DNA of 64,000 nt. It comes from Leptospiria bacterium (lineage in GTDB: Bacteria; Spirochaetota; Leptospiria; Turneriellales; CBDBES01). This document shows positions 31,432-46,868 of this stretch, one piece after another. The stretch's first letter is position 1. The number at the start of each line of letters is the position of its first letter. Under the pieces are notes generated by a model, which was not told the origin of the DNA, ran no database searches, and saw nothing but the letters and a program-made list of their open reading frames with translations. Location: the NCBI GenBank assembly GCA_965204465.1, contig OZ241995.1, positions 1,087,839-1,151,838 on the forward strand, written 5' to 3'. The position numbers and the translations under genes are program-made.

Positions 31432-31948
31432 CCAGATTTCTATCCGTTTTCTAAAGCTCTTAAATTCCCTAACAGTCCGAGGTAAAAGACTTTCGTCTCT
31501 ATTTCTAATACTTCAAAATACTTAAAGGCACTTTGGTATTACATGTCTCATTTTGGGTCAGTCTTGCGACTATGAATATTATTATTGCCTTTTACCTCAA
31601 TAATAAAATAGTATTTATTCATTATCATTTCGCATTTCTTTTTTACAATTCCAGTATAATTGGCCTATTTCTCAATCTTCTATCATGAGTGTACTTCTTT
31701 ATTTGCATCATCAATAAAACGATAACTAAACTTATATGGCAATTTTTTTACAATTTTAATTTCCCTTTGCATTTCTTCAAATAACTTTAATTGTTTATTT
31801 TCATCTTTTATTGCATTTAATTTTACTTGATCCCATTCCTTCTCGTCATTTTTTATTATCATGTCAAGAATCTTTTGGGCTTGAATTAATAATAACCCTT
31901 CCTGAAATTACATGATCTTTACGATTTAGAAAGTAATAAACTTACTTC

Positions 31949-32254
31949 TTGTTCACCTAAAGGGCACTGCGCTGGCAGTTGCACTGCTAGCTTAGCATTT
32001 CTTTTCACCCAAGGGCACTGCGCTGGCAGTTGCACTGCTAGCTTAGCATTTCTTTTCACCCAAGGGCACTGCGCTGGCAGTTATACTGCTAGCTTAGCAT
32101 TTCTTTTCACCCAAGGGCACTGCGCTAGCAGTTGTACTGCCAGCTTAGCATTTCTTTTCACCCAAGGGCACTGCGCTAGCAGTTGCACTGCTAGCTTAGC
32201 ATTTCTTTTCACCCAAGGGCACTGCGCTAGCAGTTGCACTGCTAGCTTAGCATT
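31949..32254 (+). repeat. Array R1: about 6 tandem copies of a 51-bp GC-rich hairpin unit
   Basis: Unit TTCACCCAAGGGCACTGCGCTGGCAGTTGCACTGCTAGCTTAGCATTTCTT. Unit starts at 31960, 32011, 32062, 32113, 32164 and 32215 give a strict 51-bp period with no spacers. Confidence 0.95.
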
Positions 32255-32278
32255 CTATTCTCTTACTAACCTCTCTCT

Positions 32279-32503
32279 GTGTCATTCACCAGAGAAGAAA
32301 TAGACGAATTCTACAATACATTCAAAGAAGCCTATCTGGCTCTAGCCAGCGGAGTAAAATCCTATACGATAAACACAGGAACCAGTAGCAGGTCCGTAAG
32401 CAGAGCAGATTTACCAGAAATAAAAAAGGAAATGATGTACTGGTCTAAAATGCGCAATCCGTCAGGTGACATAGAAACCATTCAGATAGAACCCAAACTA
32501 TAA
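32279..32503 (+). CDS. Lambda gpW-like head-tail joining protein homolog (copy 1)
   Basis: 74 aa, GTG start 24 nt after R1. TREE...EAYLALASGVKSYTINTGTSSRSVSRADLPEIKKEM aligns with lambda gpW (TRQEE...[31 protein letters not shown]). The stop overlaps the next ATG (TAATG), as at phage W-B junctions. Confidence 0.7.
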   Translation: MSFTREEIDEFYNTFKEAYLALASGVKSYTINTGTSSRSVSRADLPEIKKEMMYWSKMRNPSGDIETIQIEPKL

Positions 32504-33072
32504 TGATCATTACGCATATAAAGACATACTGGAATAGATTAAGGAATATAGTAACAGGATATTATGACGCAGGACGCCGTGACATACCCTCTGTAAAGTC
32601 ATGGCAACCCAAACTATTGACCGCAGATGAAGAATACATCAAAGACTATGATCTCATAAGAGCAAGAAGTAGGGACTTAGTGCGTAACAACCATCTGAAT
32701 GTAAATAAGATCAAGGGCCAGTTATTTAGTTTTTTGCGATCAGAGGACAAGAATATGGCTGGTTATATGTCCTTTCCTGTTCAATACACACAGGAATATT
32801 ATAAGCAGCTTACGGTAGAGACATTGATCAAATCCAAAGACAGGCATGGTTTTTATCGCTATGAGTACAAAAAAGTAAGAGACAGGAATGAGGTTTTAGA
32901 TTGTACAGTATATGCAAGAGCCGCATCGATCCACCTGGGAGTCGATCATTTTACAGACCTTCAGTGGGACTATCTTAAAAAGAAAATCTTAGAAAGTAAA
33001 ACAGGATCCCTATATCATAAAAGACAAAGTTCTGCACGTGTTCAGGTCATCTCTGAAGGGATTGACGTATAA
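32503..33072 (+). CDS. Chimeric ORF: lambda-family portal N-terminal segment fused to terminase large subunit (GpA) C-terminal segment (copy 1, intact frame)
   Basis: aa ~20-70: YYDAGRRD..SVKSWQP..TADEE...IRARSRDLVRNN matches portal gpB (LRSWNP...ARADDLVRNN). aa ~85-175: GYMSFPVQYTQEYYKQLTVE...RDRNEVLDCTVYARAASIHLG matches the gpA C-terminus (GAVHFP...QQLTAEE...RRNEALDCFVYALAAL). Confidence 0.65.
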   Translation: MIITHIKTYWNRLRNIVTGYYDAGRRDIPSVKSWQPKLLTADEEYIKDYDLIRARSRDLVRNNHLNVNKIKGQLFSFLRSEDKNMAGYMSFPVQYTQEYYKQLTVETLIKSKDRHGFYRYEYKKVRDRNEVLDCTVYARAASIHLGVDHFTDLQWDYLKKKILESKTGSLYHKRQSSARVQVISEGIDV

Positions 33073-33400
33073 CAGACAAAGAGTCATAAAACAGGCAAAA
33101 CCATTGATTTTCTGGAAAAAAATCCTCACCAATTGGCACCAGATCAATTCTTTTTTGCATTAAGGTATAACTGGGTTAGAACGAAAACAGAATGCGACAC
33201 AGGGATTTTTTATTTTTTTATTAACCATCATATGTATTTATTGAAGGTGTAGGAAGTTTTTTTAAATTTTTTTGTTGACAGAATATCAAATAATAATCAT
33301 TGACTTGGATTAGACAAGCTAGCCCTAAAATTAATAAGGCTTTTGTCTTACTCTAATATCAAATAAACAAAAAGCAACAGAGTTCAGGAGGATAGTTTTT
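33073..33400 (+). promoter_or_regulatory. Conserved upstream block U1 (promoter/leader module shared by the cassettes)
   Basis: Near-identical to 35681-36026, 39340-39781 and 44401-44579. Contains TTGACA (33275-33280) and TTGACT (33300-33305) -35-like hexamers; the -10 is ambiguous. Has one 51-bp leader unit and AGGAGG (33386-33391) 9 nt before the ATG. Confidence 0.4.
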
Positions 33401-34510
33401 ATGAACAATAGTAAAAAATTTATGCCCCAAAAGTGGTTGATCATATTTTTGATGCCGTTCACTCTTTTGAGGCTTGGTTGTAGCGCTGACTCAGCTAAAT
33501 CTACGGAAAGTCCAATTAATCTGGCTCCTCCGGTTCATGAGACCATACAGGTCACCTCTCCTCCCGACGGTAGTTCCTTTGCAAAGGGAGAGAATATCGT
33601 CTTTAAATTGCAGAAAAAAGATGACAGGGATATTCGAGGGTTGAATGTTTATTTAGATGATAAAAAGGTAGATGTTAGGCATGGTGAGATGTTACCTGAA
33701 GTTTCACCAGGTGAGCATAAACTAAGGTTGGCCATAAACAACAAAACGTTAGATGAGGTGAATTTTACTGTAAAGAAATTGCCTGATGAATCAATGGAAT
33801 ATACGTTCAAATTCAAATTCAGTTACTTAAGAAGGCCATTCGATAATCTAAACTATCATCTGTTTCCAAGTGCCTGCTTACCTAGAGAAGGTATTCAAAC
33901 GAGGCTCACAAAGCAAGATGATTCCGAATGGAAAGACTTTTTACCCAATATATTCACCATGAGCAAGGAATGGAATGCCTTAACTGCTTCCTGGCAAGAG
34001 GGATGGAAAAAATATAGGCACCCTCCCTGTCTCTTGAATAGGGATAAGGCGCATGCAAATGAAGTCTTTATTGATTTCCATATAAAGGCAAACAGAAACA
34101 AGCATCTTTCTAAACCAATACGAATCAATTTTGAATATGACAGAGCATCGCTTCGTCTTAGAACCAGGCTTTTGATCCGTTCTATTTCAGAAATGCGAGA
34201 AATTCTGGGTATTAGGGACAGTATACCCAGAAGCTATCGCATAGATTTCTCAAAAAAGAGCATTCTGATTCTAAATGGTGTGCGTCTTGCCGCCACATCC
34301 GCGTTCTCGGGTTGTAATATAGTTTCTATCTATGACAACCTTGCTGCTATTTACGAATGGAATAATAAACTATACGTTATGACAAAGGCCGTAAAAGAAG
34401 AAGTATTATATGGCGTAGGCTTTTGTTTTGCAATGCTCGAAGGCTTCCATACCATCCTCATTCTTGATTACGCCAAAGACCTTCCTGTAGAGTTTATAGA
34501 GATTCCGTAG
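33401..34510 (+). CDS. Island lipoprotein paralog P1
   Basis: Signal peptide with lipobox-like LLRLGC. Ig-like N-terminal domain (VTSPPDGSSFAKGENIVF). Conserved core ACLP.EGIQTRLTKQDDSEWKDFLPNIFTMSKEWNALT. Family C-terminus DYAKDLPVEFIEIP. Strong RBS. Confidence 0.85.
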   Translation: MNNSKKFMPQKWLIIFLMPFTLLRLGCSADSAKSTESPINLAPPVHETIQVTSPPDGSSFAKGENIVFKLQKKDDRDIRGLNVYLDDKKVDVRHGEMLPEVSPGEHKLRLAINNKTLDEVNFTVKKLPDESMEYTFKFKFSYLRRPFDNLNYHLFPSACLPREGIQTRLTKQDDSEWKDFLPNIFTMSKEWNALTASWQEGWKKYRHPPCLLNRDKAHANEVFIDFHIKANRNKHLSKPIRINFEYDRASLRLRTRLLIRSISEMREILGIRDSIPRSYRIDFSKKSILILNGVRLAATSAFSGCNIVSIYDNLAAIYEWNNKLYVMTKAVKEEVLYGVGFCFAMLEGFHTILILDYAKDLPVEFIEIP

Positions 34511-34604
34511 TCTGTATTTCTCTGGAAAAGCCTACCATTGTATTTTGATCAAAGACAAGCCTAAAAATAGTGGCTTGGCAAGAGAGGATGATCCTGATCA
34601 CCCC

Positions 34605-34862
34605 TTGTTCACCCAAAGGGCACTGCACTGGCGGTTATACTGCCAGCTTAGCATTTCTTTTCACCCAGAGGGCACTGCGCTGGCAGTTGCACTGCTAGCT
34701 TAGCATTTCTTTTCACCCAAGGGCACTGCGCTGGCAGTTGCACTGCTAGCTTAGCATTTCTTTTCACCCAAGGGCACTGCGCTGGCAGTTGCACTGCTAG
34801 CTTAGCATTTCTTTTCACCCAAGGGCACTGCGCTAGCAGTTGCACTGCTAGCTTAGCATTTC
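34605..34862 (+). repeat. Array R2: about 5 copies of the 51-bp unit
   Basis: Same unit and orientation as R1. The first unit is the variant ...GGCACTGCACTGGCGGTTATACTGCC... Confidence 0.95.
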
Positions 34863-34884
34863 TTTCTCTTACTAACCTCTCTCT

Positions 34885-35109
34885 GTGTCATTCACCAGAG
34901 AAGAAATAGACGAATTCTACAATACATTCAAAGAAGCCTATCTGGCCTTAGCCAGCGGAGTAAAATCCTATACCATAAACACAGGAACCAGTAGCAGATC
35001 CGTAAACAGAGCGGATCTTCCAGAAATAAAAAAGGAAATGATGTACTGGTCTAAAATGCGCAATCCGTCAGGTGACATAGAAGCCATTCAGATAGAACCC
35101 AAACTATAA
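34885..35109 (+). CDS. gpW-like protein homolog (copy 2)
   Basis: Differs from copy 1 at 2 of 74 residues (S40N, T65A). Confidence 0.7.
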   Translation: MSFTREEIDEFYNTFKEAYLALASGVKSYTINTGTSSRSVNRADLPEIKKEMMYWSKMRNPSGDIEAIQIEPKL

Positions 35110-35680
35110 TGATCATTGCACATAAAATAAAGACATACTGGAATAGATTAAGGAATATAGTAACAGGATATTATGACGCAGGGCGTCGTGACTACCCTCT
35201 GTAAAATCATGGCAACCAAAACTATTGACCGCAGATGAAGAATACATAAAAGACTATGATCTCATAAGAGCAAGAAGCAGGGACTTAGTGCGTAACAACC
35301 ATCTGAATGTAAATAAGATCAAGGGCCAGTTATTTAGTTTTTTGCGATCAGAGGACAAGAATATGGCTGGTTATATGTCCTTTCCTGTTCAATACACACA
35401 GGAATATTATAAGCAGCTTACAGCAGAGACATTGATCAAATCCAAAGACAGGCATGGTTTCTATCGCTATGAGTACAAAAAAGTAAGAGACAGGAATGAG
35501 GTTTTAGATTGTACAGTATATGCAAGAGCCGCATCGATCCACCTGGGAGTCGATTATTTTACAGACCTTCAGTGGGACTATCTTAAAAAGAAAATCTTAG
35601 AAAGTAAAACAGGATCCCTATATCATGAAAGACAAAGTTCTGCACGTGTTCAGGTCATCTCTGAAGGGATTGACGTATAA
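35109..35680 (+). pseudogene. Portal-N::terminase-C chimeric ORF, copy 2, frameshifted
   Basis: A 1-nt deletion relative to copy 1 (GACATACCC becomes GACTACCC) gives TAA at 35202-35204. The track ORF 35225..35680 is the downstream remainder. Confidence 0.7.
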
Positions 35681-36026
35681 CAGACAAAGAGTCATAAAAC
35701 AGGCAAAACCATTGATTTTCTGGAAAAAAATCCTCACCAATTGGCACCAGATCAATTCTTTTTTGCATTAAGGTAACTGGGTTAGAACGAAAACAGAATG
35801 CGACACAGGGATTTTTTATTTTTTTATTAACCATCATATGTATTTATTGAAGGTGTAGGAAATTTTTTTTAATTTTTTTTACTTTTTTTAAATTTTTTTG
35901 TTGACAGAATATCAAATAATAATCATTGACTTGGAAAAGACAGGCTAGCCCTAAAATTAATAAGGCTTTTGTCTTACTCTAATAGCAAATAAATAAAAAG
36001 CAACAGAGTTCAGGAGGATAGTTTTT
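35681..36026 (+). promoter_or_regulatory. Conserved upstream block U2
   Basis: Same block as U1. TTGACA at 35901-35906, an extra T-rich duplication, and AGGAGG-N9-ATG. Confidence 0.4.
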
Positions 36027-37097
36027 ATGAACAACAGTAAAGAATTTATGCCCCAAAAGTGGTTGATCGTATTTTTGGTGCCTCTTGCTCTTTTATGGCT
36101 TGGTTGCACTGATGAAGCCAATACCCCCAATGAGACGAATAAAACTCAAAGGGAAGCGGGCATTAAATCCCCTGCAAATGGCAGTTCTTTTTCAAAAGGA
36201 GAAGATATTTCATTTCAATTAAGTAAAACGGATTTGGATATGCAAGGCATAGATCTTTATCTGGATAGGCGAAAAATTGATATTCATCAAGGGGATATGC
36301 TACCTGAACTTTCAGTAGGTGAGCATAAACTAAGGTTGGACATAAGCAACAAAACGGTGGATGAGGTGATTTTTACTGTAAAGAAATTGCCTGATGAATC
36401 AATGGAATATATGTTCAGGTTCAAATTCAGTTCTTTAAAGGGGGATGGTTACCTATATCCAAGTGCCTGTTTACCTAAGAAAGGTATTCAAACGAGGCTC
36501 ACAAAACAAGATGATTCCGAATGGAAAGATTTTTTACCCAATATATTCACCATGAGCAAGGAATGGAATGCCCTGACTGCTTCCTGGCAAGAGGGAAGGG
36601 GAGAATATGGCCCCCCTCCCTGTCTCTTGAATAGGGATAAGGTGCATGCAAATGAAGTTTTTATTGACTTCTATATAAAGGCAAACAGAAGCAAGCATCT
36701 TTCTAAACCAATAAGGATCAATTTTGAATCTAACAGGAGTTCACTTGGTCGTAGAGCCGGGCTTTTGATCCGCTCTATTTCAGAAATGCGAGAAATTCTG
36801 GGTATTAGGGACAGTATACCCAGAAGCTATCGCATAGATTTCTCAAAAAAGAGTATTCTGACTCTAAGTTATTTTCGTGTCGTACCCGAGTCAGGAGGTT
36901 GTCATCTAACTTCTATTTATGACAACCTTACTGCCATTTACGAATGGAATAATAAATTGTACGTTATGACGAAGGCCGTAACAAATGAAATCGTATATCC
37001 TGAAGGCCCTTGTTTTGCAATTTTGACAGGCTTCAGTAGAAGCCTAATTCTTGATTACGCCAAAGACCTTCCTGTAGAGTTTATAGAGATTCCGTAG
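36027..37097 (+). CDS. Island lipoprotein paralog P2 (patchwork of P4-like and P1-like segments)
   Basis: The signal peptide plus TDEANTPNETNKTQREAGIKSPANG... matches P4. VKKLPDESMEY and LLIRSISEMREILGIRDSIPRSYRIDF match P1. Confidence 0.85.
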   Translation: MNNSKEFMPQKWLIVFLVPLALLWLGCTDEANTPNETNKTQREAGIKSPANGSSFSKGEDISFQLSKTDLDMQGIDLYLDRRKIDIHQGDMLPELSVGEHKLRLDISNKTVDEVIFTVKKLPDESMEYMFRFKFSSLKGDGYLYPSACLPKKGIQTRLTKQDDSEWKDFLPNIFTMSKEWNALTASWQEGRGEYGPPPCLLNRDKVHANEVFIDFYIKANRSKHLSKPIRINFESNRSSLGRRAGLLIRSISEMREILGIRDSIPRSYRIDFSKKSILTLSYFRVVPESGGCHLTSIYDNLTAIYEWNNKLYVMTKAVTNEIVYPEGPCFAILTGFSRSLILDYAKDLPVEFIEIP

Positions 37098-37148
37098 CCC
37101 GTATTTTGATCAAAGACAAGCCTAAAAATAGTGGCTTGGCAAGAGAGG

Positions 37149-38225
37149 ATGATTTTAATAAAGAAGATGATACGAAATATTCTGTTTACCTTTCTGTTAC
37201 TACCTTATTTTTTAGGGTTTAGTTGCACAGACAACTCCAATATTGCTGATAACAATTCAGACGAATATGATGTGGTTCCTCAAAGGGAAGCGGGCATTAA
37301 ATCCCCTGCAAATGGTAGTTCTTTTTCAAAAGGAGAAGATATTTCATTTCAATTAAGTAAAACGGATTTGGATATGCAAGGCATAGATCTTTATCTGGAT
37401 AGACGAAAAATTGATATTCATCAAGGGGATATGCTACCTGAACTTTCAGTAGGTGAGCATAAACTAAGGTTGGACATAAACAACAAAACGGTGGATGAGG
37501 TAACCTTTAATGTAACAGAAGCGGAATATACGTTCAGATTCAAATTCAGTTATTTAAATGCGGATGGTGGCCTATATCCAAGTGCCTGTTTACCTAAGAA
37601 AGGTATTCAAACGAGGCTCACAAAACAAGATGATTCCGAATGGAAAGATTTTTTGCCAAATATATTCACCATGAGTAAGGAATGGAATGCCTTAACTACT
37701 TCCTGGCAAGAGGGAAGGGAAGAATATGGCCCCCCTCCCTGTCTCTTGAATGAAGATAAGGCGCATGCAAATGAAGTTTTTATTGACTTCTATATAAAGG
37801 CAAATAAAAGTAAGCATCTTTCTAAGTCAATATGGATCAATTTTGAATATCGTAGAATATCGCGTTATAATAATTTTAAGGCCGGGCTTTTGATCCGTTC
37901 TCTTTCAGAAATGCAAGAACTTCTGGGTTATCGTAACAGGATACCCGAAAGATATCGTATAGATTTTTCAAAAAAGAGTATTTTGACTCTAAAGGGCCCT
38001 ACTATTGATGGATGCGAAATCAGTGGTTGTGGTTTCGCTTCTGCTTATGACATCCTTGCCGCCATTTACGAGTGGAATAATAAATTATACATTATGACAA
38101 AAGTCGCACCAAAAGAAATATTATATCCCGTGGGTCCTTGTACTGCATGCTTGCAAGGTTCCAATGCCATCCTAATTCTGGATTACGCCAAAGACCTTCC
38201 CTTAGAGTTCATAGAGATTCCGTAG
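37149..38225 (+). CDS. Island lipoprotein paralog P3 (own signal peptide, no upstream U block)
   Basis: MILIKKMIRNILFTFLLLPYFLGFSC signal/lipobox. The start is ambiguous (37131 GTG, 37149 or 37167 ATG). The 5' end is built on a truncated copy of the conserved 3' flank of P2. From QREAGIK onward it is almost identical to P4. Confidence 0.8.
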   Translation: MILIKKMIRNILFTFLLLPYFLGFSCTDNSNIADNNSDEYDVVPQREAGIKSPANGSSFSKGEDISFQLSKTDLDMQGIDLYLDRRKIDIHQGDMLPELSVGEHKLRLDINNKTVDEVTFNVTEAEYTFRFKFSYLNADGGLYPSACLPKKGIQTRLTKQDDSEWKDFLPNIFTMSKEWNALTTSWQEGREEYGPPPCLLNEDKAHANEVFIDFYIKANKSKHLSKSIWINFEYRRISRYNNFKAGLLIRSLSEMQELLGYRNRIPERYRIDFSKKSILTLKGPTIDGCEISGCGFASAYDILAAIYEWNNKLYIMTKVAPKEILYPVGPCTACLQGSNAILILDYAKDLPLEFIEIP

Positions 38226-38294
38226 CCCGTATTTTGATCAAAGACAAGCCTAAAAATAGTGGCTTGGCAAGAGAGGATGATCCTGATTCACCCC

Positions 38295-38524
38295 TTGTTC
38301 ACCCAAAGGACACTGCACTGGCAGTTGCACTGCTAGCTTAGCATTTCTTTTCACCCAAGGGCACTGCGCTAGCAGTTGCACTGCTAGCTTAGCATTTCTT
38401 TTCATTTCTTAATGCTGCTTCTTAGCTAATGTTAGCATTCTTATTTGTTCACCCAAGGGCACTGCACTAGCAGTTGCACTGCTAGTTTAGTATTTCTTAA
38501 TGAAATTTTTATTTACAGCATTCT
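38295..38524 (+). repeat. Array R3: about 3 degenerate copies of the 51-bp unit, interrupted by AT-rich insertions
   Basis: Two good units (38295-38400), then interrupted or decayed units ending in ...AGCATTCTATTCTCTTAC, as in R1. Confidence 0.85.
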
Positions 38525-38546
38525 ATTCTCTTACTAACCTCTCTCT

Positions 38547-38771
38547 GTGTCATTCACCAGAGAAGAAATAGACGAATTCTACAATACATTCAAAGAAGCC
38601 TATCTGGCTCTAGCCAGCGGAGTAAAATCCTATACGATAAACACCGGAACCAGTAGCAGGTCCGTAAGCAGAGCAGATTTACCAGAAATAAAAAAGGAAA
38701 TGATGTACTGGTCTAAAATGCGCAATCCGTCAGGTGACATAGAAACCATTCAGATAGAACCCAAACTATAA
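38547..38771 (+). CDS. gpW-like protein homolog (copy 3)
   Basis: Protein identical to copy 1. Confidence 0.7.
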   Translation: MSFTREEIDEFYNTFKEAYLALASGVKSYTINTGTSSRSVSRADLPEIKKEMMYWSKMRNPSGDIETIQIEPKL

Positions 38772-39339
38772 TGATCATTACGCATATAAAGACATACTGG
38801 AATAGATTAAGGAATATAGTAACAGGATATTATGACGCAGGACGTCGTGACTACCCTCTGTAAAGTCATGGCAACCCAAACTATTGACCGCAGATGAAGA
38901 ATACATCAAAGACTATGATCTCATAAGAGCAAGAAGTAGGGACTTAGTGCGTAACAACCATCTGAATGTAAATAAGATCAAGGGCCAGTTATTTAGTTTT
39001 TTGCGATCAGAGGACAAGAATATGGCTGGTTATATGTCCTTTCCTGTTCAATACACACAGGAATATTATAAGCAGCTTACGGTAGAGACATTGATCAAAT
39101 CCAAAGACAGGCATGGTTTTTATCGCTATGAGTACAAAAAAGTAAGAGACAGGAATGAGGTTTTAGATTGTACAGTATATGCAAGAGCCGCATCGATCCA
39201 CCTGGGAGTCGATCATTTTACAGACCTTCAGTGGGACTATCTTAAAAAGAAAATCTTAGAAAGTAAAACAGGATCCCTATATCATGAAAGACAAAGTTCT
39301 GCACGTGTTCAGGTCATCTCTGAAGGGATTGACGTATAA
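38771..39339 (+). pseudogene. Portal-N::terminase-C chimeric ORF, copy 3, frameshifted
   Basis: Same 1-nt deletion as copy 2, giving TAA at 38861-38863. The remainder is ORF 38884..39339. Confidence 0.7.
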
Positions 39340-39781
39340 CAGACAAAGAGTCATAAAACAGGCAAAACCATTGATTTTCTGGAAAAAAATCCTCACCAAT
39401 TGGCACCAGATCAATTCTTTTTTGCATTAAGGTAACTGGGTTAGAACGAAAACAGAATGCGACACAGGGGATTTTTTATTTTTTTATTAACCATCATATG
39501 TATTTATTGAAGATGTAGGAAATTTTTTTAAATTTTTTTGTTGACAGAATATCAAATAATAATCATTGACTTGGAAAAGACAGGCTAGCCCTAAAATTAA
39601 TAAGGCTTTTGTCTTACTCTAATAGCAAATAAATAAAAGGCTTATTAAAAATAGGGCTTTTGTCTTACTCTAATATCAAATAAATAAAAGACTTATTAAA
39701 AATAAGGCTTTTGTCTTACTCTAATAGCACATAAATAAAAGGCTGACTAAAAAGTAGAAGATATATTAGGAGGATATACTT
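39340..39781 (+). promoter_or_regulatory. Conserved upstream block U3 with a triplicated leader unit
   Basis: TTGACA at 39541-39546. Three 51-bp leader units (39602, 39653, 39704). AGGAGG lies before ATG 39782. Confidence 0.4.
39602..39754 (+). repeat. Leader repeat: 3 x 51 bp, AT-rich
   Basis: Unit (A/G)AGGCTTTTGTCTTACTCTAATA(G/T)CA(A/C)ATAAATAAAAG(G/A)CTTATTAAAAAT. There is one copy in U1 and U2, three here, and two at 44464-44565. Confidence 0.85.
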
Positions 39782-40258
39782 ATGAGATTAAGTTTAAATT
39801 ATGGAAGATTTTCATTTAAAAATTTATTTTTTGTCGCAGTATTAGGTTTGACTATCACCTTTTCTGCATGTATACAGAGTGGGGATACTTTGGGGAATTA
39901 CTCAGATAGCAAAGCTGACATTACATTGATTGATAAAAGTAGTCGGCTATTAAGCGAATCTTTTGTATCTTTGCCTCCTGATGATGTCAATGAAGATGAA
40001 GCAATTCTGATACAAGAGAATAAAGTCGAGCATGCAGAACCTGATTATAATCTGGTAAAAAATTCAAATGGTCTAAACGGAGTAGAAGGGTGGAGGGTAA
40101 CCAAGGAAAAGGGAAATGGTTTTTTTTATCAGGGAAAAAACTCTTCTAATCTGGAATCTGGCAAGTACTTTGGCACATCTTATGGATGGAGTGTCAAAAG
40201 ACAGATCATTGATTTGGAAGCGGAGTGCGTTATGTTGTCTTTAAGCATGCAGGCGTAA
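39782..40258 (+). pseudogene. Lipoprotein signal plus the N-terminal half of an FBA (F-box-associated, glycan-binding type) domain; disrupted 5' part of the protease gene
   Basis: Signal peptide with lipobox-like TFSAC. NLVKNSNGLNGVEGW...GKYFGTSYGWSVKRQIIDLEAE parallels FBXO2 NLLRNPCGEEDLEGW...KKYFASSFEWCRKAQVIDLQAEG. The frame ends 34 nt into the next ORF. Confidence 0.6.
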
Positions 40259-42150
40259 GCAGCAGAGAAGAACCGCAAGAAGATTATTACGGCACACGAA
40301 TGAGGAATGCTACATTAAACATAAGTTTTCCACAAGAATTTTCTATGAAAGAAAGCTCTGTTATTGCAGAAGCTCTGCAAAACAAATTAAATGAGATGTC
40401 AGATCAAGAGATGATACCCGTTTCGGTTCTATGCAGGGATCCGCTGGTTAATGAAAATGATCTTTCCGCCTTTTCCGCTGGTTTCGAGGTGGACCAGGGC
40501 AATATCAAAAATGTTCAACTGGCTTCAAGTGATGAAGAGACGGTATCTGATCTAGAGCTGGTTTCTACTTTAGAGGAACAAGTAGAGATCATGAACCAAA
40601 AAGTCCTTTCTCAGATAAATCAAATGAAAAAGAAAAAAATTGAGGCTTATAGAGAAGATATTGATGAACTCACAGAGATGACGAATATAGATATAATGGG
40701 TCGTTCCTCTGGTGTAGCAGAATCCATTGGATTCGTTAAAGTTGAATTGAGCAAGGCAGAGATAGAAACCATAGCTCAATATGAAAATATCGTACAGACA
40801 ATAGATGTGCAATCAGAAGCAGACAATGACTTGGATTCTGCCTATACAGAGACAAAAATGGACCAGGCCCATCATGTCGAACATGATTCTGCCAGACAAA
40901 CAGGTTCGGGAGTCAATGTCTATATGTCTGAGGCGGATAATAACTGCTTTGACCCAAACACATATAATTTTGGGACCTGGATTCCAGGATATATTCCAGA
41001 TGTTGCATCAACAGGAAGGTATTGGGAGGATCGCCCTACTAGTGATCATGCTACACAAGTTGCTCAATCTCTAGTAGTTACTGCTCCTCATATTACTTTA
41101 TATTGTTCTACTAAGAGTTATCTATTCTCTCGCAGTTTAAAAGATCGGATACATATCATCAACTATTCTTGGACGGATCCCGGGTATGAAGGGGGTGCTG
41201 CTAATACTACTAGCTGGTTACCGCAAGACTCCTTATCCGATAGGTATGTTTGGAGAGATCGGATAGCTATATTTAAGAGTGCTGGTAATAATTGTAATAT
41301 TCCTGAGGGACACTGTCAAGTTACTTCCCCTGGAAAGGCGCACAATGTTATCACGGTTGGTGCTTATGATGATAGAACAGATAGGATGGGTACTTTTTCC
41401 CGTACAGTTGATCCAGAAACAAATGCGATCAAACCTGAGATCGTAGCCCCTGGTGTTTCTCTCCGATTTCCTGCTTCCGTTAATGCAAGTGAAGTCACAT
41501 CTTGGAATAATCATCTTCTTAGCGGTACTAGCTATTCCACTCCTCTGGCGGCCGGTATGGCTGCCTCTGTTACATCAAGATATACTCTACTCAAAAAGCA
41601 ACCTCATTTGATCAAGGCCAGTATGCTTGCTATGTCCGCCAAAGACATTCAAAGCGGGACTAGTGCCGATGGTGTAGGTGCCATTCAATGGAATGAGGAT
41701 GGAAATTATCGTTACTGGTCGAACTATAATAATAATTTTCTGGTAACAGGCGGCTGGAAATTGATTCATGAATATAATGTTTATAGAAACAACAAAAAAG
41801 TCAGGGTCGTCATATCATGGCTCAATGATGTAAATAAATGTGACAGTAGCACAGCTAAATTATGTATGGATATAGATTTAAAAGTTCATGGTCCTAATAA
41901 TGAATATATAGATCATGACTACCGGAATAGCCATGATGATGAATATGCTCCAAATAACATAACGAACAATAACTGGAGAATGGTAGAGTTCACGACAAGA
42001 AAAACAGGTAAATATAAGGTCTATGTATGGCGCCGTAGTAACTGGCATACAAAGACGAAAAGATGCTTTCTGTGGATTTGTTGGGGGCATAAGAAGCATT
42101 ACAGTAAAGTCAACCTGGGTCTTAGAATTGCCTACATTGATTATGATTAA
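40225..42150 (+). CDS. Subtilisin-like (S8) serine protease with an FBA C-terminal remnant, an I9-like propeptide and a C-terminal beta-sandwich domain
   Basis: The N-terminus VRYVVFKHAG...DYYGTRMRNATLNI matches the FBA C-terminus (VRFVRFEHGG..WFGARVTNSSV). Candidate Asp segment GSGVNVYMSEAD, His in SDHATQVAQ, Asn in FKSAGNN, Ser in SGTSYSTPLAAGMAA. No signal peptide in this frame. Confidence 0.8.
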   Translation: MRYVVFKHAGVSSREEPQEDYYGTRMRNATLNISFPQEFSMKESSVIAEALQNKLNEMSDQEMIPVSVLCRDPLVNENDLSAFSAGFEVDQGNIKNVQLASSDEETVSDLELVSTLEEQVEIMNQKVLSQINQMKKKKIEAYREDIDELTEMTNIDIMGRSSGVAESIGFVKVELSKAEIETIAQYENIVQTIDVQSEADNDLDSAYTETKMDQAHHVEHDSARQTGSGVNVYMSEADNNCFDPNTYNFGTWIPGYIPDVASTGRYWEDRPTSDHATQVAQSLVVTAPHITLYCSTKSYLFSRSLKDRIHIINYSWTDPGYEGGAANTTSWLPQDSLSDRYVWRDRIAIFKSAGNNCNIPEGHCQVTSPGKAHNVITVGAYDDRTDRMGTFSRTVDPETNAIKPEIVAPGVSLRFPASVNASEVTSWNNHLLSGTSYSTPLAAGMAASVTSRYTLLKKQPHLIKASMLAMSAKDIQSGTSADGVGAIQWNEDGNYRYWSNYNNNFLVTGGWKLIHEYNVYRNNKKVRVVISWLNDVNKCDSSTAKLCMDIDLKVHGPNNEYIDHDYRNSHDDEYAPNNITNNNWRMVEFTTRKTGKYKVYVWRRSNWHTKTKRCFLWICWGHKKHYSKVNLGLRIAYIDYD

Positions 42151-42170
42151 AGAATCTGGTTTTTAAAACA

Positions 42171-42635
42171 ATGACCATTTTTACTAAAAATATTTTTTTA
42201 TTTTATTTTACCTTTAATAGTATTCTATGCTCGGAAATTGTAGATGATCAAACATCTAGATCAGATAAAGGTCTTCCTGTCTTCATTGAAGAGATCATTG
42301 CCCCTGAACAGGTTTCCTCTTCTGAAACAAGTTTTGATATTCGATTGAAAGGCAATACTTCTAAATCTGATATAAATTGCTCAAAAATTCAATACAATGC
42401 TACAGTGACGGAAACCAGTCTAAATTTATCCGTGGAAAGAGTTGCTCCGCCGCCCTTTCGGCTAGACGATGGTTCTATTTCTACTGCTTGCAATGATCAA
42501 GTAGTCCCTTTTGGTGAAAGGATTTATACGGTAAAGGCAAATCCTCATTTTGCTTTGGGTGACTTTTTGATCACTATTCAAAATCCAGATTATCAAGGTG
42601 ATGATCTTCAAAAAGTAGTGAAGATCGTCGAATAA
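42171..42635 (+). CDS. Small secreted/lipoprotein S1 downstream of the protease
   Basis: Hydrophobic N-terminus ending in SILC. Paralog of S2, sharing the blocks SSSETSFDIRLKGNTSKSDINC and VPFGER.YTVKANP.FALGDF.ITIQNPD..GDDLQKVVKIVE. Confidence 0.65.
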   Translation: MTIFTKNIFLFYFTFNSILCSEIVDDQTSRSDKGLPVFIEEIIAPEQVSSSETSFDIRLKGNTSKSDINCSKIQYNATVTETSLNLSVERVAPPPFRLDDGSISTACNDQVVPFGERIYTVKANPHFALGDFLITIQNPDYQGDDLQKVVKIVE

Positions 42636-42711
42636 TGATCTTTCAAAAGAAACAGAATTTAATTGAAAGAAATCCATTCAATTCATCTATGATGGATCAA
42701 ATATCCCCCCC

Positions 42712-42813
42712 TTGTTCACCCAAATGGCACTGCACTAGCAGTTGCACTGCCAGCTTAGCATTTCTTTTCACCCAAGGGCACTGCGCTGGCAGTTGCACTG
42801 CCAGCTTAGCATT
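42712..42813 (+). repeat. Array R4: 2 copies of the 51-bp unit, cut mid-unit
   Basis: Ends ...GCCAGCTTAGCATT and is joined directly to AATATAATGTTTATAG, which equals 41771 onward. Confidence 0.9.
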
Positions 42814-43220
42814 AATATAATGTTTATAGAAACAACAAAAAAATCAGGGTCGTCATATCATGGCTCAATGATGTAAATAAATGTGACAGTAGCACAGCTA
42901 AATTATGTATGGATTTAGATTTAAAAGTTCATGGTCCTAATAATGAATATATAGATCATGACTACCGGAATAGCCATGATGATGTATATGCTCCAAATAA
43001 CATAACGAACAATAACTGGAGAATGGTAGAGTTCACGACAAGAAAAACAGGTAAATATAAGATTTATGTATGGCGCCGTAGTAACCGGTATTTATCAGTG
43101 AGGCTATGCAGCCCATTTTTTTCTAGTCGGCCTTTTTTTGTGGGGTGTCGTTCTACAGAAATCAGGGTCTACAATAAAGTCAACCTGGGTCTTAGAATTG
43201 CCTACATTGATTATGATTAA
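42814..43220 (+). pseudogene. Duplicated 3' fragment of the S8 protease gene (no start; corresponds to 41771-42150)
   Basis: In-frame YNVYRNNKKIRVVISWLNDVNKCDSSTAKLCMDLDLKVHGPNN... is preceded by TAA. It is identical to the parent except for a replaced in-frame segment (43086-43175 versus about 42043-42105). Confidence 0.85.
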
Positions 43221-43632
43221 GTGGATCATTTTTTCTTCTTTAATTTTTGTTTCTTCTTCATGCTCTGAGTCTCCTGAGTCTGAGACTCAATATAGCATTA
43301 AGAATATCTATATTGAAGAAGTGGATGTTCCCAGAGAAGTTTCCTCTTCTGAAACAAGTTTTGATATTCGATTGAAAGGCAATACTTCTAAATCTGATAT
43401 AAATTGCGAAGAAATCCGATATGAGTCTATAATAAGCAAAACAAGTCTGAAATTAGCAGTAAAAGGATATAGTTATCCTAGACTATGTAGTGCATTGATA
43501 GTTCCCTTTGGCGAAAGGGTTTATACGGTAAAGGCAAATCCTTATTTTGCTCTGGGTGATTTTATGATCACCATTCAAAATCCAGATCGTGCAGGTGATG
43601 ATCTTCAAAAAGTAGTGAAGATCGTCGAATAA
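43213..43632 (+). CDS. Small lipoprotein S2 (paralog of S1)
   Basis: MIKWIIFSSLIFVSSSC signal/lipobox. The ATG overlaps the stop of the protease fragment. The track start at 43138 is an upstream read-in. Confidence 0.65.
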   Translation: MIKWIIFSSLIFVSSSCSESPESETQYSIKNIYIEEVDVPREVSSSETSFDIRLKGNTSKSDINCEEIRYESIISKTSLKLAVKGYSYPRLCSALIVPFGERVYTVKANPYFALGDFMITIQNPDRAGDDLQKVVKIVE

Positions 43633-43708
43633 TGATCTTTCAAAAGAAACAGAATTTAATTAAAATAAATCCATTCAATTCATCTATGATGGATCAAATA
43701 TCCCCCCC

Positions 43709-44035
43709 TTGTTCACCCAAATGGCACTGCACTAGCAGTTGCACTGCCAGCTTAGCATTTCTTTTCACCAAAAGGGCACTGCGCTGGCAGTTGCACTGCT
43801 AGCTTAGCATTTCTTTTCACCAAAAGGGCACTGCGCTGGCAGTTGCACTGCTAGCTTAGCATTTCTTTTCACCCAAGGGCACTGCGCTGGCAGTTGTACT
43901 GCCAGCTTAGCATTTCTTTTCACCCAAGGGCACTGCGCTAGCAGTTGCACTACTAGCTTAGCATTTCTTTTCACCCAAGGGCACTGCACTGGCGGTTATA
44001 CTGCCAGTTTAGCATTTCTTTTCACCCAGAGGGCA
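43709..44035 (+). repeat. Array R5: about 6.4 copies of the 51-bp unit
   Basis: Same unit and orientation. Point variants between units, e.g. CACCAAAAGGG, TTGTACTGCC, TTGCACTACT. Confidence 0.95.
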
Positions 44036-44400
44036 TAGAAAAATGGAACACCATTCTATTTTCTGTTTTTTCTTCTTCCTAATTTACTCTTGAGTAAGAC
44101 GAACGGTTGGGAACGCAGGCAAGGATGCCTGCGAAATGGAGCGTCTTTGCCATGGATGCAAAACATGGATGTTTTGCAAGGCTGCCTGACCTTACCCCAA
44201 GCACCTGACATCCTATCAGGTCGCTTGCCCCTACAAAACATCCGTGTTTTGTAGGTTACAGGATGTAACCCGTCCAGCCGCTTGTGCAGACGAAGTCTGT
44301 GAACTTCCATGTGAAAAAAGAAAGAAAAATAGCTATTCTTTTTACACAAAAAGACCTGTGCCCGTAGGGTGAAATGGGTAGCAAAGTAGCAGGTTTTTTT
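44036..44400 (+). other. GC-rich multi-hairpin element, copy A (possible structured RNA or MITE-like element)
   Basis: A series of perfect hairpins: CGCAGGCA-AGGA-TGCCTGCG, GCAAAACAT-GG-ATGTTTTGC, ACCTGA-CATCCTA-TCAGGT, CTACAAAACA-TCCG-TGTTTTGTAG and GGTTACA-GGA-TGTAACC. It sits where the gpW module sits in cassettes 1-3. Confidence 0.6.
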
Positions 44401-44579
44401 TGTTGACAGAATATCAAATAATAATCATTGACTTGGAAAAGACAGGCTAGCCCTAAAATTAATAAGGCTTTTGTCTTACTCTAATAGCACATAAATAAAA
44501 GGCTTATTAAAAATAGGGCTTTTGTCTTACTCTAATATCAAATAAACAAAAAGCAACAGAGTTTAGGAGGATAGTCTTT
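44401..44579 (+). promoter_or_regulatory. Conserved upstream block U4 (3' part only) with a duplicated leader unit
   Basis: Starts at TGTTGACAGAATATC (TTGACA 44403-44408). Two 51-bp leader units (44464, 44515). TAGGAGG-N9-ATG. Confidence 0.4.
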
Positions 44580-45644
44580 ATGAACAATAGTAAAAAATTT
44601 ACATTCCAAAAGTGGTTGATCATATTTTTGATGCCTCTTGCTCTTTTATGGCTTGGTTGCACTGATGAAGCCAATACCCCCAATGAGACCAATAAAACTC
44701 AAAGGGAAGCGGGCATTAAATCCCCTGCAAATGGCAGTTCTTTTTCAAAAGGAGAAGATATTTCATTTCAATTAAGTAAAACGGATTTGGATATGCAAGG
44801 CATAGATCTTTATCTGGATAGGCGAAAAATTGATATTCGTCAAGGGGATATGCTACCTGAACTTTCAGTAGGTGAGCATAAACTAAGGTTGGACATAAAC
44901 AACAAAACGGTGGATGAGGTAACCTTTAATGTAACAGAAGCGGAATATACGTTCAGATTCAAATTCAGTTATTTAAATGCGGATGGTGGCCTATATCCAA
45001 GTGCCTGTTTACCTAAGAAAGGTATTCAAACGAGGCTCACAAAACAAGATGATTCCGAATGGAAAGATTTTTTGCCAAATATATTCACCATGAGTAAGGA
45101 ATGGAATGCCTTAACTACTTCCTGGCAAGAGGGAAGGGAAGAATATGGCCCCCCTCCCTGTCTCTTGAATGAAGATAAGGCGCATGCAAATGAAGTTTTT
45201 ATTGACTTCTATATAAAGGCAAATAAAAGTAAGCATCTTTCTAAACCAATATGGATCAATTTTGAATTTCATAGAGAACTGCTTAGTAATAATTTTAAGG
45301 CCGGGCTTTTGATCCGTTCTCTCTCGGAAATGCAAGAACTTCTGGGTTATCGTAACAGGATACCCGAAAGATATCGTATAGATTTTTCAAAAAAGAGTAT
45401 TCTGACTCTAAAGGGCCCTACTATTGATGGATGCGAAATCAGTGGTTGTGGTTTCGCTTCTGCTTATGACATCCTTGCCGCCATTTACGAGTGGAATAAT
45501 AAATTATACATTATGACAAAAGTCGCACCAAAAGAAATATTATATCCCGTGGGTCCTTGTGCTGCATGCTTGCAAGGTTCCAATGCCATCCTAATTCTCG
45601 ATTACGCCAAAGACCTTCCTGTAGAGTTTATAGAGATTCCGTAG
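44580..45644 (+). CDS. Island lipoprotein paralog P4
   Basis: The N-terminal ~115 aa match P2 and the rest matches P3. Lipobox-like LLWLGC. C-terminus DYAKDLPVEFIEIP. Confidence 0.85.
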   Translation: MNNSKKFTFQKWLIIFLMPLALLWLGCTDEANTPNETNKTQREAGIKSPANGSSFSKGEDISFQLSKTDLDMQGIDLYLDRRKIDIRQGDMLPELSVGEHKLRLDINNKTVDEVTFNVTEAEYTFRFKFSYLNADGGLYPSACLPKKGIQTRLTKQDDSEWKDFLPNIFTMSKEWNALTTSWQEGREEYGPPPCLLNEDKAHANEVFIDFYIKANKSKHLSKPIWINFEFHRELLSNNFKAGLLIRSLSEMQELLGYRNRIPERYRIDFSKKSILTLKGPTIDGCEISGCGFASAYDILAAIYEWNNKLYIMTKVAPKEILYPVGPCAACLQGSNAILILDYAKDLPVEFIEIP

Positions 45645-45713
45645 TCTGTATTTTGATCAAAGACAAGCCTAGGAATAGTGGCTTGGCAAGAGAGGATGAT
45701 CCTGATTCACCCC

Positions 45714-45783
45714 TTGTTCACCCAAAGGGCACTGCACTGGCAGTTGCACTGCCAGCTTAGCATTTCTTTTCACCCAGAGGGCA
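45714..45783 (+). repeat. Array R6: about 1.4 copies of the 51-bp unit
   Basis: Has the same start (CCCTTGTTCACCCAAAGGGCACTGCACTGG) and the same exit junction (CACCCAGAGGGCATAGAAAAATGG) as R5. Confidence 0.85.
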
Positions 45784-46264
45784 TAGAAAAATGGAACACC
45801 ATTCTATTTTCTGTTTTTTCTTCTTCCTAATTTACTCTTGAGTAAGACGAACGGTTGGGAACGCAGGCAAGGATGCCTGCGAAATGGAGCGTCTTTGCCA
45901 TGGATGCAAAACATGGATGTTTTGCAAGGCTGGGGATTGGGTTACAGGATGTAACCACCCAGCCTAACTTCTATGGCAAAGTAGCGGGTTTTTTTCACCC
46001 TACGGCACAGGTCTTTGTTTCTTTCTTTTTTTTACATGTAAAACATGGATGTTTTACATGGCTGCCTGACCTTACCCCAAGCACCTGACATCCTATCAGG
46101 TCGCTTGCCCCTACAAAACATCCGTGTTTTGTAGGTTACAGGATGTAACCCGTCCAGCCGCTTGTGCAGACGAAGTCTGTGAACTTCCATGTGAAAAAAG
46201 AAAGAAAAATAGCTATTCTTTTTACACAAAAAGACCTGTGCCCGTAGGGTGAAATGGGTAGCAA
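45784..46264 (+). other. GC-rich multi-hairpin element, copy B, with a ~130-bp internal partial inverted duplication
   Basis: Equals copy A plus an insert at 45933-46062. That insert contains CACCCTACGGCACAGGTCTTT...ACATG, the inverted repeat of CATGT...AAAGACCTGTGCCCGTAGGGTG at 46188-46250. Confidence 0.6.
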
Positions 46265-46524
46265 TACAGGAGAAGACTAAAAAAATAAAAAAGATCTGCA
46301 CCCGTAAATGAGAAGAAAAGTGGAATGCTATTCTAATTATAAGATAAAGTATAACAAATTGCTAGCCTTTTGGGGAGATTACTTGTGCCCACTGCAAATT
46401 ATTTTTTTACTTAAAAATTTTCCTCTGGAATTTTATCTCTTAACTAATTCTATTAGAAAAAAGAATTAGAAAAAGTAGAATAAATTTTTTGTTGAAACAA
46501 AAATATAATGTGACATAATAATTT

Positions 46525-46868
46525 CGGAGACGGCGGGATTTGAACCCGCGTCCTGTCATGCAATCGAAAGCTTTCTACATGTTTAGTTTGTATTTTATTT
46601 TAGAGAAGACCATCTCTACAAACAAAGTAAGGACTTCCTTAGCAAGAATGTCTCGGTTTTATACCCTTGCCATATAAAACCCACTCTCTATAAAAGTTAG
46701 CCATTATATCCGCCTAGAGAGAAACAGATATAACAGCGCTTGGCAAATTATGCAGCCAAAGCGTAATTTAAGTTGTCGTCGTTTATTATAGACTTCCCTT
46801 TTTAGAAGAGGGCGCTTCACATGCTTTTCTAACCATTGGATCATGACAGTCGAAGCCAATTCGTCCCC
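46525..46868 (-). ncRNA. ssrA: tmRNA (SsrA)
   Basis: The minus strand begins GGGGACGAATTGGCTTCGAC and ends GCGGGTTCAAATCCCGCCGTCTCC (tRNA-like T-arm and acceptor). The tag frame reads ...N-D-D-N-L-N-Y-A-L-A-A-stop (stop at 46748-46750). No CCA is encoded. Confidence 0.9.

Follow-up and report, generated by a model that had tools for sequence, protein, structure and literature searches.

Introduction

Lectin-type F-box proteins (FBXO2/Fbs1, FBXO6, FBXO44 and NCCRP1; structures 1UMI, 2E31 and 3WSO) contain an F-box-associated (FBA) domain (PF04300), and KP-43-type subtilases (Bacillus KSM-KP43, 1WMD; SubHal, 5FAX) consist of an S8 catalytic domain and a C-terminal beta-barrel. The residues Phe177, Tyr279 and Trp280 of FBXO2 (Fbs1) are essential for N-glycan binding, and the example of FBXO44 demonstrates that membership of the FBA family by itself does not confer N-glycan binding (PMC4603797). 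Here we analyze a gene that combines both types of domain. It is located at positions 39782-42150 of a stretch of 64,000 nucleotides from a Leptospiria bacterium (assembly GCA_965204465.1, contig OZ241995.1, positions 1,087,839 to 1,151,838 of the forward strand); this whole stretch is referred to as the window. Judged from the alignments described below, two overlapping open reading frames at this locus, ORF1 and ORF2, are the remains of one gene, which was broken by an internal deletion with a frame offset. With a probability of about 0.7 we consider this gene to be a pseudogene that has been multiplied within a repeat-rich zone, and a preliminary description of the locus, made from the sequence alone, had also named a pseudogene as one of the possible outcomes.

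The family to which this gene belongs is referred to as the FBA-S8 family. Unlike the lectin-type F-box proteins its members have no F-box; they are fusions of the FBA domain with a protease, and the signal in front of the domain is that of a bacterial lipoprotein. Compared with the KP-43-type subtilases, the family adds an N-terminal lipobox, the FBA domain and a long linker, the identity is low, and a Glu residue, assigned by eye, is found at the Asp motif.

Results

The two reading frames contain both ends of an FBA domain

Both ORFs are located on the + strand, and their coordinates agree with those of the preliminary description. The features of the split gene are given in the following list, in which HMM stands for an independent hidden Markov model of the FBA domain; P0003 and P0004 are two intact orthologs, and L001 contains the gene of P0003.

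39768-39774, + strand: Shine-Dalgarno-like sequence AGGAGGA, 7 nt 5' of the ATG of ORF1, read from the sequence
39782-40258, + strand: ORF1 (158 aa), comprising a signal peptide, a linker and the N-terminal third of the FBA domain; the last 10 residues before the stop codon (CVMLSLSMQA) are out of frame
39782-39871, + strand: putative lipoprotein signal peptide of ORF1, MRLSLNYGRFSFKNLFFVAVLGLTITFSA followed by the lipobox Cys (residue 30)
40046-40225, + strand: N-terminal FBA fragment, NLVKNSNGLNGVEGW...KRQIIDLEAE; Pfam profile positions 8-72 of 175, 40.3 bits; HMM E=2.8e-15
40216-40323, + strand: C-terminal FBA fragment in the frame of ORF2, (G)VRYVVFKHAGVSSREEPQEDYYGTRMRNATLNI; HMM positions 141-174, E=8.6e-7; the final FBA strands in P0003 and in P0004 are orthologous to it
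40219-40224 (about), + strand: deletion junction; 232 nt of the FBA core are missing relative to the P0003 gene in L001 (DNA and protein alignments)
40225-42150, + strand: ORF2, 641 aa, GTG start, in the -1 frame relative to ORF1; FBA tail, linker/pro-region of about 190 aa, S8 domain and C-terminal beta-barrel
40903-41724, + strand: S8 catalytic domain (Pfam, 81 bits; hhalign to subtilisin BPN')
40930-40932, + strand: Glu236 of ORF2 at the expected position of the catalytic Asp (motif by eye)
41047-41049, + strand: His275 of ORF2 (hhalign)
41287-41289, + strand: Asn355 of ORF2 (hhalign)
41530-41532, + strand: Ser436 of ORF2 (hhalign)
41737-42147, + strand: C-terminal beta-barrel of the KP-43 type (family profile against 1WMD, E=6.9e-21)

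Using the Pfam profile PF04300, an FBA domain was detected in ORF1 with E=3.7e-10 (gathering cut-off 32.4 bits), and the first 60 aa of ORF2 alone gave no Pfam match. When ORF1 (up to DLEAE) was joined to ORF2 (from GVRYVV), the FBA score increased to 46.6-50.8 bits in two stretches. The profile search proposed in the preliminary description was thus positive for ORF1 and for the repaired fusion and negative for the N-terminus of ORF2. We additionally used the independent HMM, which was constructed from 130 domains (129 from the exhaustive search described below and mouse FBXO2), with the window's own family left out. It was run on all 974 six-frame stop-to-stop segments of at least 30 aa in the window. 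The frame of ORF1 was matched over positions 4-66 of the 176 model positions and the frame of ORF2 over positions 141-174 (frame residues 2-37), and apart from these two frames no segment among the 974 reached E<1. As both pieces are significant with a model built without their own family, we regard them as genuine FBA fragments, which is in line with the earlier assignment. HMM positions 67-140, about 74 central positions, are absent from the window, close to the 70-80 missing residues estimated before; about 63 positions at the beginning and about 34 at the end are kept. The complete ten-stranded beta-sandwich of the FBA domain is therefore not present in the window copy, in contrast to P0003 and P0004.

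The two frames differ in their export signals. The N-terminus of ORF1 (MRLSLNYGRFSFKNLFFVAVLGLTITFSAC) contains a hydrophobic region with a mean Kyte-Doolittle hydropathy of 2.49 (maximal 12-residue window). The lipobox TFSAC was judged by eye and not with a predictor, and lipobox-like N-termini are located at the same place in P0003 and P0004. ORF2 has no signal peptide, as had been noticed before: its N-terminus is hydrophilic, with a maximal 12-residue Kyte-Doolittle hydropathy of 0.62 and no hydrophobic core, and the export signal present in the intact orthologs is absent. A TGA codon at 40210-40212 closes the frame of ORF2, which opens only at position 40213, and for this reason the frame is not extendable upstream. 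Directly 5' of the GTG codon of ORF2 a Shine-Dalgarno-like sequence (GGAAGCGGAG) is present.

Intact orthologs reveal a deletion of 232 nucleotides

Intact orthologs had been suggested as a control of the split, and such genes exist. A search with the repaired fusion against 5.8 billion proteins returned only four proteins. P0001 is ORF2 itself, and P0002 is a paralog of 644 aa with 83% identity on the same 1.19-Mb contig. P0003 (874 aa, 65% identity) and P0004 (889 aa, 46% identity) are full-length and originate from other assemblies; the source of P0004 is a metagenome-assembled genome labelled 'Leptospiria bacterium'. In both proteins a lipobox-type N-terminus, a full FBA domain, a long linker, the S8 domain and a KP-43-type C-terminal beta-barrel follow one another. 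The Pfam FBA scores are 91.7 bits for P0003 and 104.4 bits for P0004, each over profile positions 4-173 of 175. The FBA domain of P0003 could be aligned end to end with the sugar-binding domain of mouse FBXO2 (1UMI/1UMH) with E=7e-17. The likeness of the intact orthologs to the lectin-type F-box proteins is thus a homology of the whole domain, and the FBXO2 sequence given in the preliminary description was essentially right.

An alignment at the DNA level demonstrated that the window is 232 nt shorter than the P0003 gene. Since 232 equals 3x77+1, the loss of the core and the -1 offset of the frames can both be attributed to a single deletion, in agreement with the earlier proposal that an internal deletion had split one gene.

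Two scans of JGI metagenome contigs revealed no members of the FBA-S8 family, and a scan of GTDB genomes only the genome of P0004. The family was found in three genomes only, and the other two hold the fused, intact form, with the gene located either in an ordinary chromosomal or housekeeping context or in a tandem array without 51-bp repeats. An alternative considered before, in which relatives would share the split organization with a separate signal peptide on the protease, does not correspond to these findings: the split form occurs only in paralogs of the same genome, none of which has such a signal peptide.

Three copies with the same junction are present on the contig

By an exact-sequence cluster look-up, three products resembling ORF1 and three resembling ORF2 were assigned to the 1.19-Mb contig of the window. 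Those of the first kind are P0006, which is the copy in the window, P0008, which has 158 aa and differs by two substitutions, and P0007, which is cut further to 123 aa. The ORF2-like products P0001, P0002 and P0005 have lengths of 641-644 aa and all begin with MRYVVFKHAGVSS. The two peptides at the junction, ...DLEAECVMLSLSMQA before the stop codon of ORF1 and MRYVVFKHAGVSS... of ORF2, are identical across the three otherwise differing copies. An assembly artefact of 232 nt is implausible, because it would have to recur in three copies that are not identical, and a correction of the assembly, considered in the preliminary description, is unlikely to be required. Among the proteins returned by the search of 5.8 billion sequences there was no intact copy from this contig.

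Over the first 100 residues the ORF2 copies share 98% identity, and the value falls to about 50-80% in some stretches of the protease domain and also in the C-terminal tail. This mosaic pattern of identity suggests that gene conversion may have made the 5' part, including the deletion, uniform among paralogs whose divergence is older. Part of a further copy is located downstream of the split gene:

42810-43217, + strand: 3' fragment of a further (fourth) protease copy, about 136 codons, 85% identical to residues 510-644 of P0002 (tblastn)

This fragment is joined directly to an array of 51-bp repeats and has a tail of the P0002/P0005 type, with an insertion of 27 nt relative to the main copy. 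A frameshift as origin of the C-terminal tail of P0002 and P0005 was considered and rejected, because the DNA alignment revealed an in-frame insertion of 27 nt together with substitutions.

The protease part is related to KP-43-type subtilases

ORF2 matched the profile Peptidase_S8 with E=1e-22 and 81.2 bits (gathering cut-off 21.8), and hhalign placed His275, Asn355 and Ser436 on His64, Asn155 and Ser221 of subtilisin BPN'. At the expected position of the catalytic Asp a Glu is invariant in all five family members (E236 in ORF2, E458 in P0003), and the motif reads GSGVNVYMSEA instead of G-x-G-V-x-V-A-V-x-D. The region of Asp32 was aligned by no tool, and the assignment of the Glu was made by eye. 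His, Asn and Ser are canonical; going by the motif, the family may have a Glu-His-Ser triad, or its acid residue may occupy another position. An AlphaFold2 model of P0003, calculated from an alignment of four sequences, has a mean predicted local distance difference test score (pLDDT) of 38.5 and is unusable both for the geometry of Glu, His and Ser and for the recognition of an I9-like fold.

The S8 domain and the C-terminal beta-barrel align with the KP-43-type subtilases 1WMD and 5FAX (E=6.9e-21 and 2.2e-19), and the family-profile alignment to 1WMD extends through chain residues 330-418. The C-terminal beta-sandwich domain of the preliminary description therefore corresponds to the beta-barrel of KP-43. 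From the domain order proposed there for the ancestral gene, the lipobox, the FBA domain, the S8 protease and the C-terminal beta domain are intact in P0003 and P0004, and the I9-like propeptide was not recovered: the profile Inhibitor_I9 (PF05922) gave no match at E<=1 in ORF2 and none at E<=0.1 in P0003 and P0004. Beta-alpha-beta elements at residues 383-418 of P0003 are present in the low-confidence model and are not reliable.

FBA domains are present on bacterial secreted enzymes

The FBA domain had been called eukaryote-type. We performed an exhaustive phmmer search with the FBA domain of P0003 as query against 1.84 billion representatives and obtained 383 matches at E<=1e-3, of which 102 reached E<=1e-10. 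A Pfam scan was carried out with the 98 listed matches of up to 1000 aa, a list that is biased towards relatives of the bacterial query. An FBA domain was assigned to 97 of these 98 proteins and an F-box to only 13. The other domains comprise sorting tails of the type IX secretion system (T9SS; 4), NAGPA (3), trypsin (2), astacin (2), PLD (2), reprolysin (1), RTX repeats and others, and many of the FBA-bearing matches start with a bacterial signal peptide or lipobox. Two proteins could be traced to bacterial contigs. P0009, with three FBA domains and NAGPA, is encoded in a 9.5-Mb NCBI genome among genes of the TonB system. P0016, a fusion of M12B and FBA, is located beside ftsZ on a hydrothermal-vent contig; its FBA domain is 46% identical to that of P0003, closer than any F-box protein. 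These comparisons make clear that the FBA domain is not confined to eukaryotes and that the nearest relatives of the P0003 domain are bacterial. The term eukaryote-type is therefore not retained. Pfam revealed no F-box in ORF1, P0003 or P0004; the lipoprotein signal is located in its place. As a side observation, FBA domains, often 2-8 in tandem, are found on many bacterial-type secreted proteins (P0009-P0155; L005, L006), some of them giant, with up to 6974 aa.

The proposed targeting of the protease to glycans was evaluated with an alignment of 133 FBA domains. The position of Trp280 is occupied by Trp in 114 of these domains and by Q, R and L in the window, P0003 and P0004, respectively. 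In the same order the equivalents of Tyr279 are P, P and N and those of Phe177 Y, Y and R, in a loop whose alignment is somewhat uncertain. Since the residues of the glycan pocket are not conserved, the designation glycan-targeted protease is unsupported for the FBA-S8 family as far as these alignments can be read. Relative to the lectin-type F-box proteins, the family thus differs at the Tyr279 and Trp280 equivalents of the chitobiose pocket, and the window copy has in addition lost the central strands.

The closest parallels in domain combination are bacterial fusions of FBA with other hydrolases (NAGPA, PLD, M12B reprolysin, M12A astacin and S1 trypsin, some with T9SS tails), which have in common with the FBA-S8 family that the domain is located on a secreted or anchored bacterial hydrolase. 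These fusions keep the Trp280 equivalent, unlike the FBA-S8 family, and the fusion with S8 was seen only in the family of three genomes. In the literature we found no paper on bacterial FBA domains and no description of the lipobox-FBA-S8 architecture. This architecture is rare, and it is a variation on the familiar theme of multi-domain secreted subtilases and not new in kind.

The split gene is located in a segmentally repeated zone

The gene is part of a segmentally repeated cassette zone (31946-46300), in which arrays of 51-bp repeats are interleaved with modules of about 1 kb and differing cargo genes:

31946-32254, 34608-34865, 38298-38498, 42715-42813, 43712-44035 and 45718-45768: arrays of the 51-bp hairpin repeat
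42715-42813, + strand: two GC-rich 51-bp hairpin-repeat copies at the junction with the 3' protease fragment
32249-33273, 34855-35879 and 38517-39539: phage-remnant modules, three copies, 98-100% identical
39599-39753, + strand: three tandem copies of the AT-rich 51-bp unit AATAAGGCTTTTGTCTTACTCTAATAGCAAATAAATAAAAGGCTTATTAAA directly 5' of ORF1, in the likely promoter region
42171-42635, + strand: small partner lipoprotein, 154 aa, ending with KVVKIVE, conserved downstream of the protease gene
43138-43632, + strand: second copy of the small partner lipoprotein gene
46525-46868, - strand: transfer-messenger RNA (tmRNA) gene, tag peptide DDNLNYALAA, bordering the repeat zone

The GC-rich 51-bp unit TTCACCCAAGGGCACTGCGCTAGCAGTTGCACTGCTAGCTTAGCATTTCTT contains a hairpin of 9 bp. 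The AT-rich repeat AATAAGGCTTTTGTCTTACTCTAATAGCAAATAAATAAAAGGCTTATTAAA differs from this hairpin unit and lies within an upstream region that is 64-70% identical to those of other cargo genes. An Rfam scan of the region from 31 to 47 kb detected the tmRNA only and gave no match for the 51-bp repeats. Each phage-remnant module encodes a head-tail adaptor of 74 aa (PHROG 118) and a chimeric fragment composed of the first 35 or so residues of a lambda-type portal protein, followed by the last 100 or so residues of the nuclease domain of the terminase GpA. The border with the tmRNA gene suggests an ssrA-linked island or a degraded prophage. A duplicated 3' end of the tmRNA gene, which as an att site would delimit such an island, was not found in the window.

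In all three genomes the FBA-S8 gene is followed by a small lipoprotein gene of the KVVKIVE type. A homolog adjoins P0003 (L001, 8649-9101), and at least 15 tandem copies are arranged around P0004 (L002, 4649-14391). The members of this partner family are 124-181 aa long and end with KVVKIVE; their N-terminus is conserved, and the centre, which is rich in Cys and Asp, is hypervariable. The predicted fold is an immunoglobulin (Ig)-like beta-sandwich (pLDDT 75), and a Foldseek comparison of the model with the PDB gave no significant match; the best value was E 0.046, for alpha-2-macroglobulin MG and other Ig-like domains. The protease could act on these lipoproteins, be inhibited by them or work together with them.

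Four paralogous ORFs of 354-369 aa were observed in cargo position (33401-34510, 36027-37097, 37131-38225 and 44580-45644). They could not be assigned to a family with confidence and gave only sub-threshold matches to Big_7 and to the Leptospira LIC_12238 family of plasminogen-binding lipoproteins.

Discussion

The history of the gene may be reconstructed as follows. The ancestor would have been a membrane-anchored lipoprotein protease with a lipobox signal, a full FBA domain, a linker or pro-region of about 190 aa, a KP-43-like S8 domain and a C-terminal beta-barrel, in which the FBA beta-sandwich would have served as ligand-binding module. A single deletion of about 232 nt (3n+1) would then have removed the FBA strands from about position 67 to 140 and shifted the downstream frame by -1. 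ORF1 is well initiated and now stops at 158 aa; it would deliver a signal peptide and a piece of the FBA domain whose folding is unlikely. The protease frame has no signal peptide, and the internal GTG from which it could start is weak. After the deletion, the broken allele was probably multiplied or spread by gene conversion, so that the 1.19-Mb contig now contains at least three copies, and the recombination-prone zone of 51-bp repeats and phage-gene remnants beside the tmRNA gene may have provided the setting for this multiplication. As the signal peptide is cut off from the protease and the FBA core is lost, the gene is most likely a pseudogene.

Additional signs of decay are consistent with this reading. 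In a Tajima relative-rate test of the S8 domain with P0004 as outgroup, 41 lineage-specific replacements were counted in the window copy and 18 in P0003 (chi2=8.97), an excess of about 2.2-fold that is restricted to the S8 domain, with the other regions balanced. One copy of ORF1 (P0007) is shortened to 123 aa, an extra 3' gene fragment is present, and the neighbourhood is decaying.

Other observations weigh against a loss of function. All three copies of ORF2 keep the full frame of 641-644 aa and the His, Asn and Ser motifs, and the frames have remained open despite a divergence of 17% at the amino acid level between P0001 and P0002/P0005. In a gene that died long ago such frames would not be expected, unless the copies had already diverged when gene conversion spread the deletion; this order of events, with which the mosaic identity is compatible, would reconcile the open frames with a pseudogene. 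The motif GGAAG/GGAG just 5' of the GTG makes some independent translation of ORF2 possible, and the acceleration of the S8 domain alone could reflect a diversification of paralogs.

The same observations would suit a gene that is split and still functional, with ORF2 translated from the GTG at 40225 by coupling or reinitiation after ORF1. Its product would be a subtilase without an FBA domain, intracellular or exported in another way, and ORF1 a separate small lipoprotein. The complete frames in three copies, with in-frame length differences only and intact His, Asn and Ser motifs, and the Shine-Dalgarno-like GGAAGCGGAG directly before the GTG are what such an arrangement would predict. However, ORF2 has no signal peptide and starts inside the last two FBA strands, which are unable to fold alone; one ORF1 copy is cut further, evolution of the S8 domain is accelerated relative to the intact ortholog, and the only other genomes with the family contain the fused, intact form. 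We therefore consider a functional split unlikely. If the split form were alive, three diverged subtilase ORFs without signal, each behind the same short lipoprotein ORF in a cassette zone with 51-bp hairpin repeats, phage remnants and tmRNA, could provide a recombination-driven or otherwise regulated variation of surface proteases and their small Ig-like lipoprotein partners, and, on a wider scale, the 'lectin' domain FBA of the eukaryotic F-box proteins would be part of a targeting module that is widespread in bacteria and serves secreted hydrolases. This wider picture, taken as a whole, is unlikely.

The three broken copies and the 3' fragment could also be silent donor cassettes that feed a recombination-based variation of surface lipoproteins and proteases, with the 51-bp arrays as recombination sites. 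The cassette-like organization of the zone (repeat arrays, a shared upstream region and differing cargo lipoprotein genes), the mosaic identity between the copies and the hypervariable centres of the small partner lipoproteins would be compatible with such a system. We nevertheless regard it as quite improbable: the search of 5.8 billion proteins returned no intact expression copy from the window's contig, no recombinase was identified in the zone, and the intact orthologs are located in an ordinary housekeeping context or in a tandem array without such repeats. A programmed -1 ribosomal frameshift in the overlap (40213-40258) would fuse ORF1 and ORF2, and the product would be a lipoprotein protease that is exported and retains a miniature remnant of the FBA domain. 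The offset of -1, the overlap of 46 nt and the identity of the junction in three copies agree with this mechanism, but inspection of the overlap in the frame of ORF1 revealed no slippery heptamer X XXY YYZ, the joined domain would be devoid of about 74 core positions of the beta-sandwich, and the 3n+1 deletion fully accounts for the offset; a frameshift is thus very improbable. That the true gene is intact and the break an artefact of assembly or sequencing is hardly credible, although the region is highly repetitive and the source is a metagenome assembly, because a gap of 232 nt is atypical of an indel error and the same junction is found in three copies that differ elsewhere.

Taken together, these considerations favour the pseudogene. 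As a likely dead gene the locus in the window itself matters little, and the intact family is of more interest. A further point concerns the FBA domain itself; it is a modest one, as anyone running Pfam can see the domain assignments. Research on this domain has dealt almost exclusively with its role in glycan recognition by eukaryotic SCF ubiquitin ligases, and the domain is also found repeatedly on bacterial secreted enzymes, where its partners are proteases of four families (S8, S1, M12A and M12B), NAGPA glycosidases and PLD. This range of partners suggests that the domain may act as a general extracellular targeting module, and its presence in bacteria invites the question from which source the eukaryotic lectin-type F-box proteins arose.

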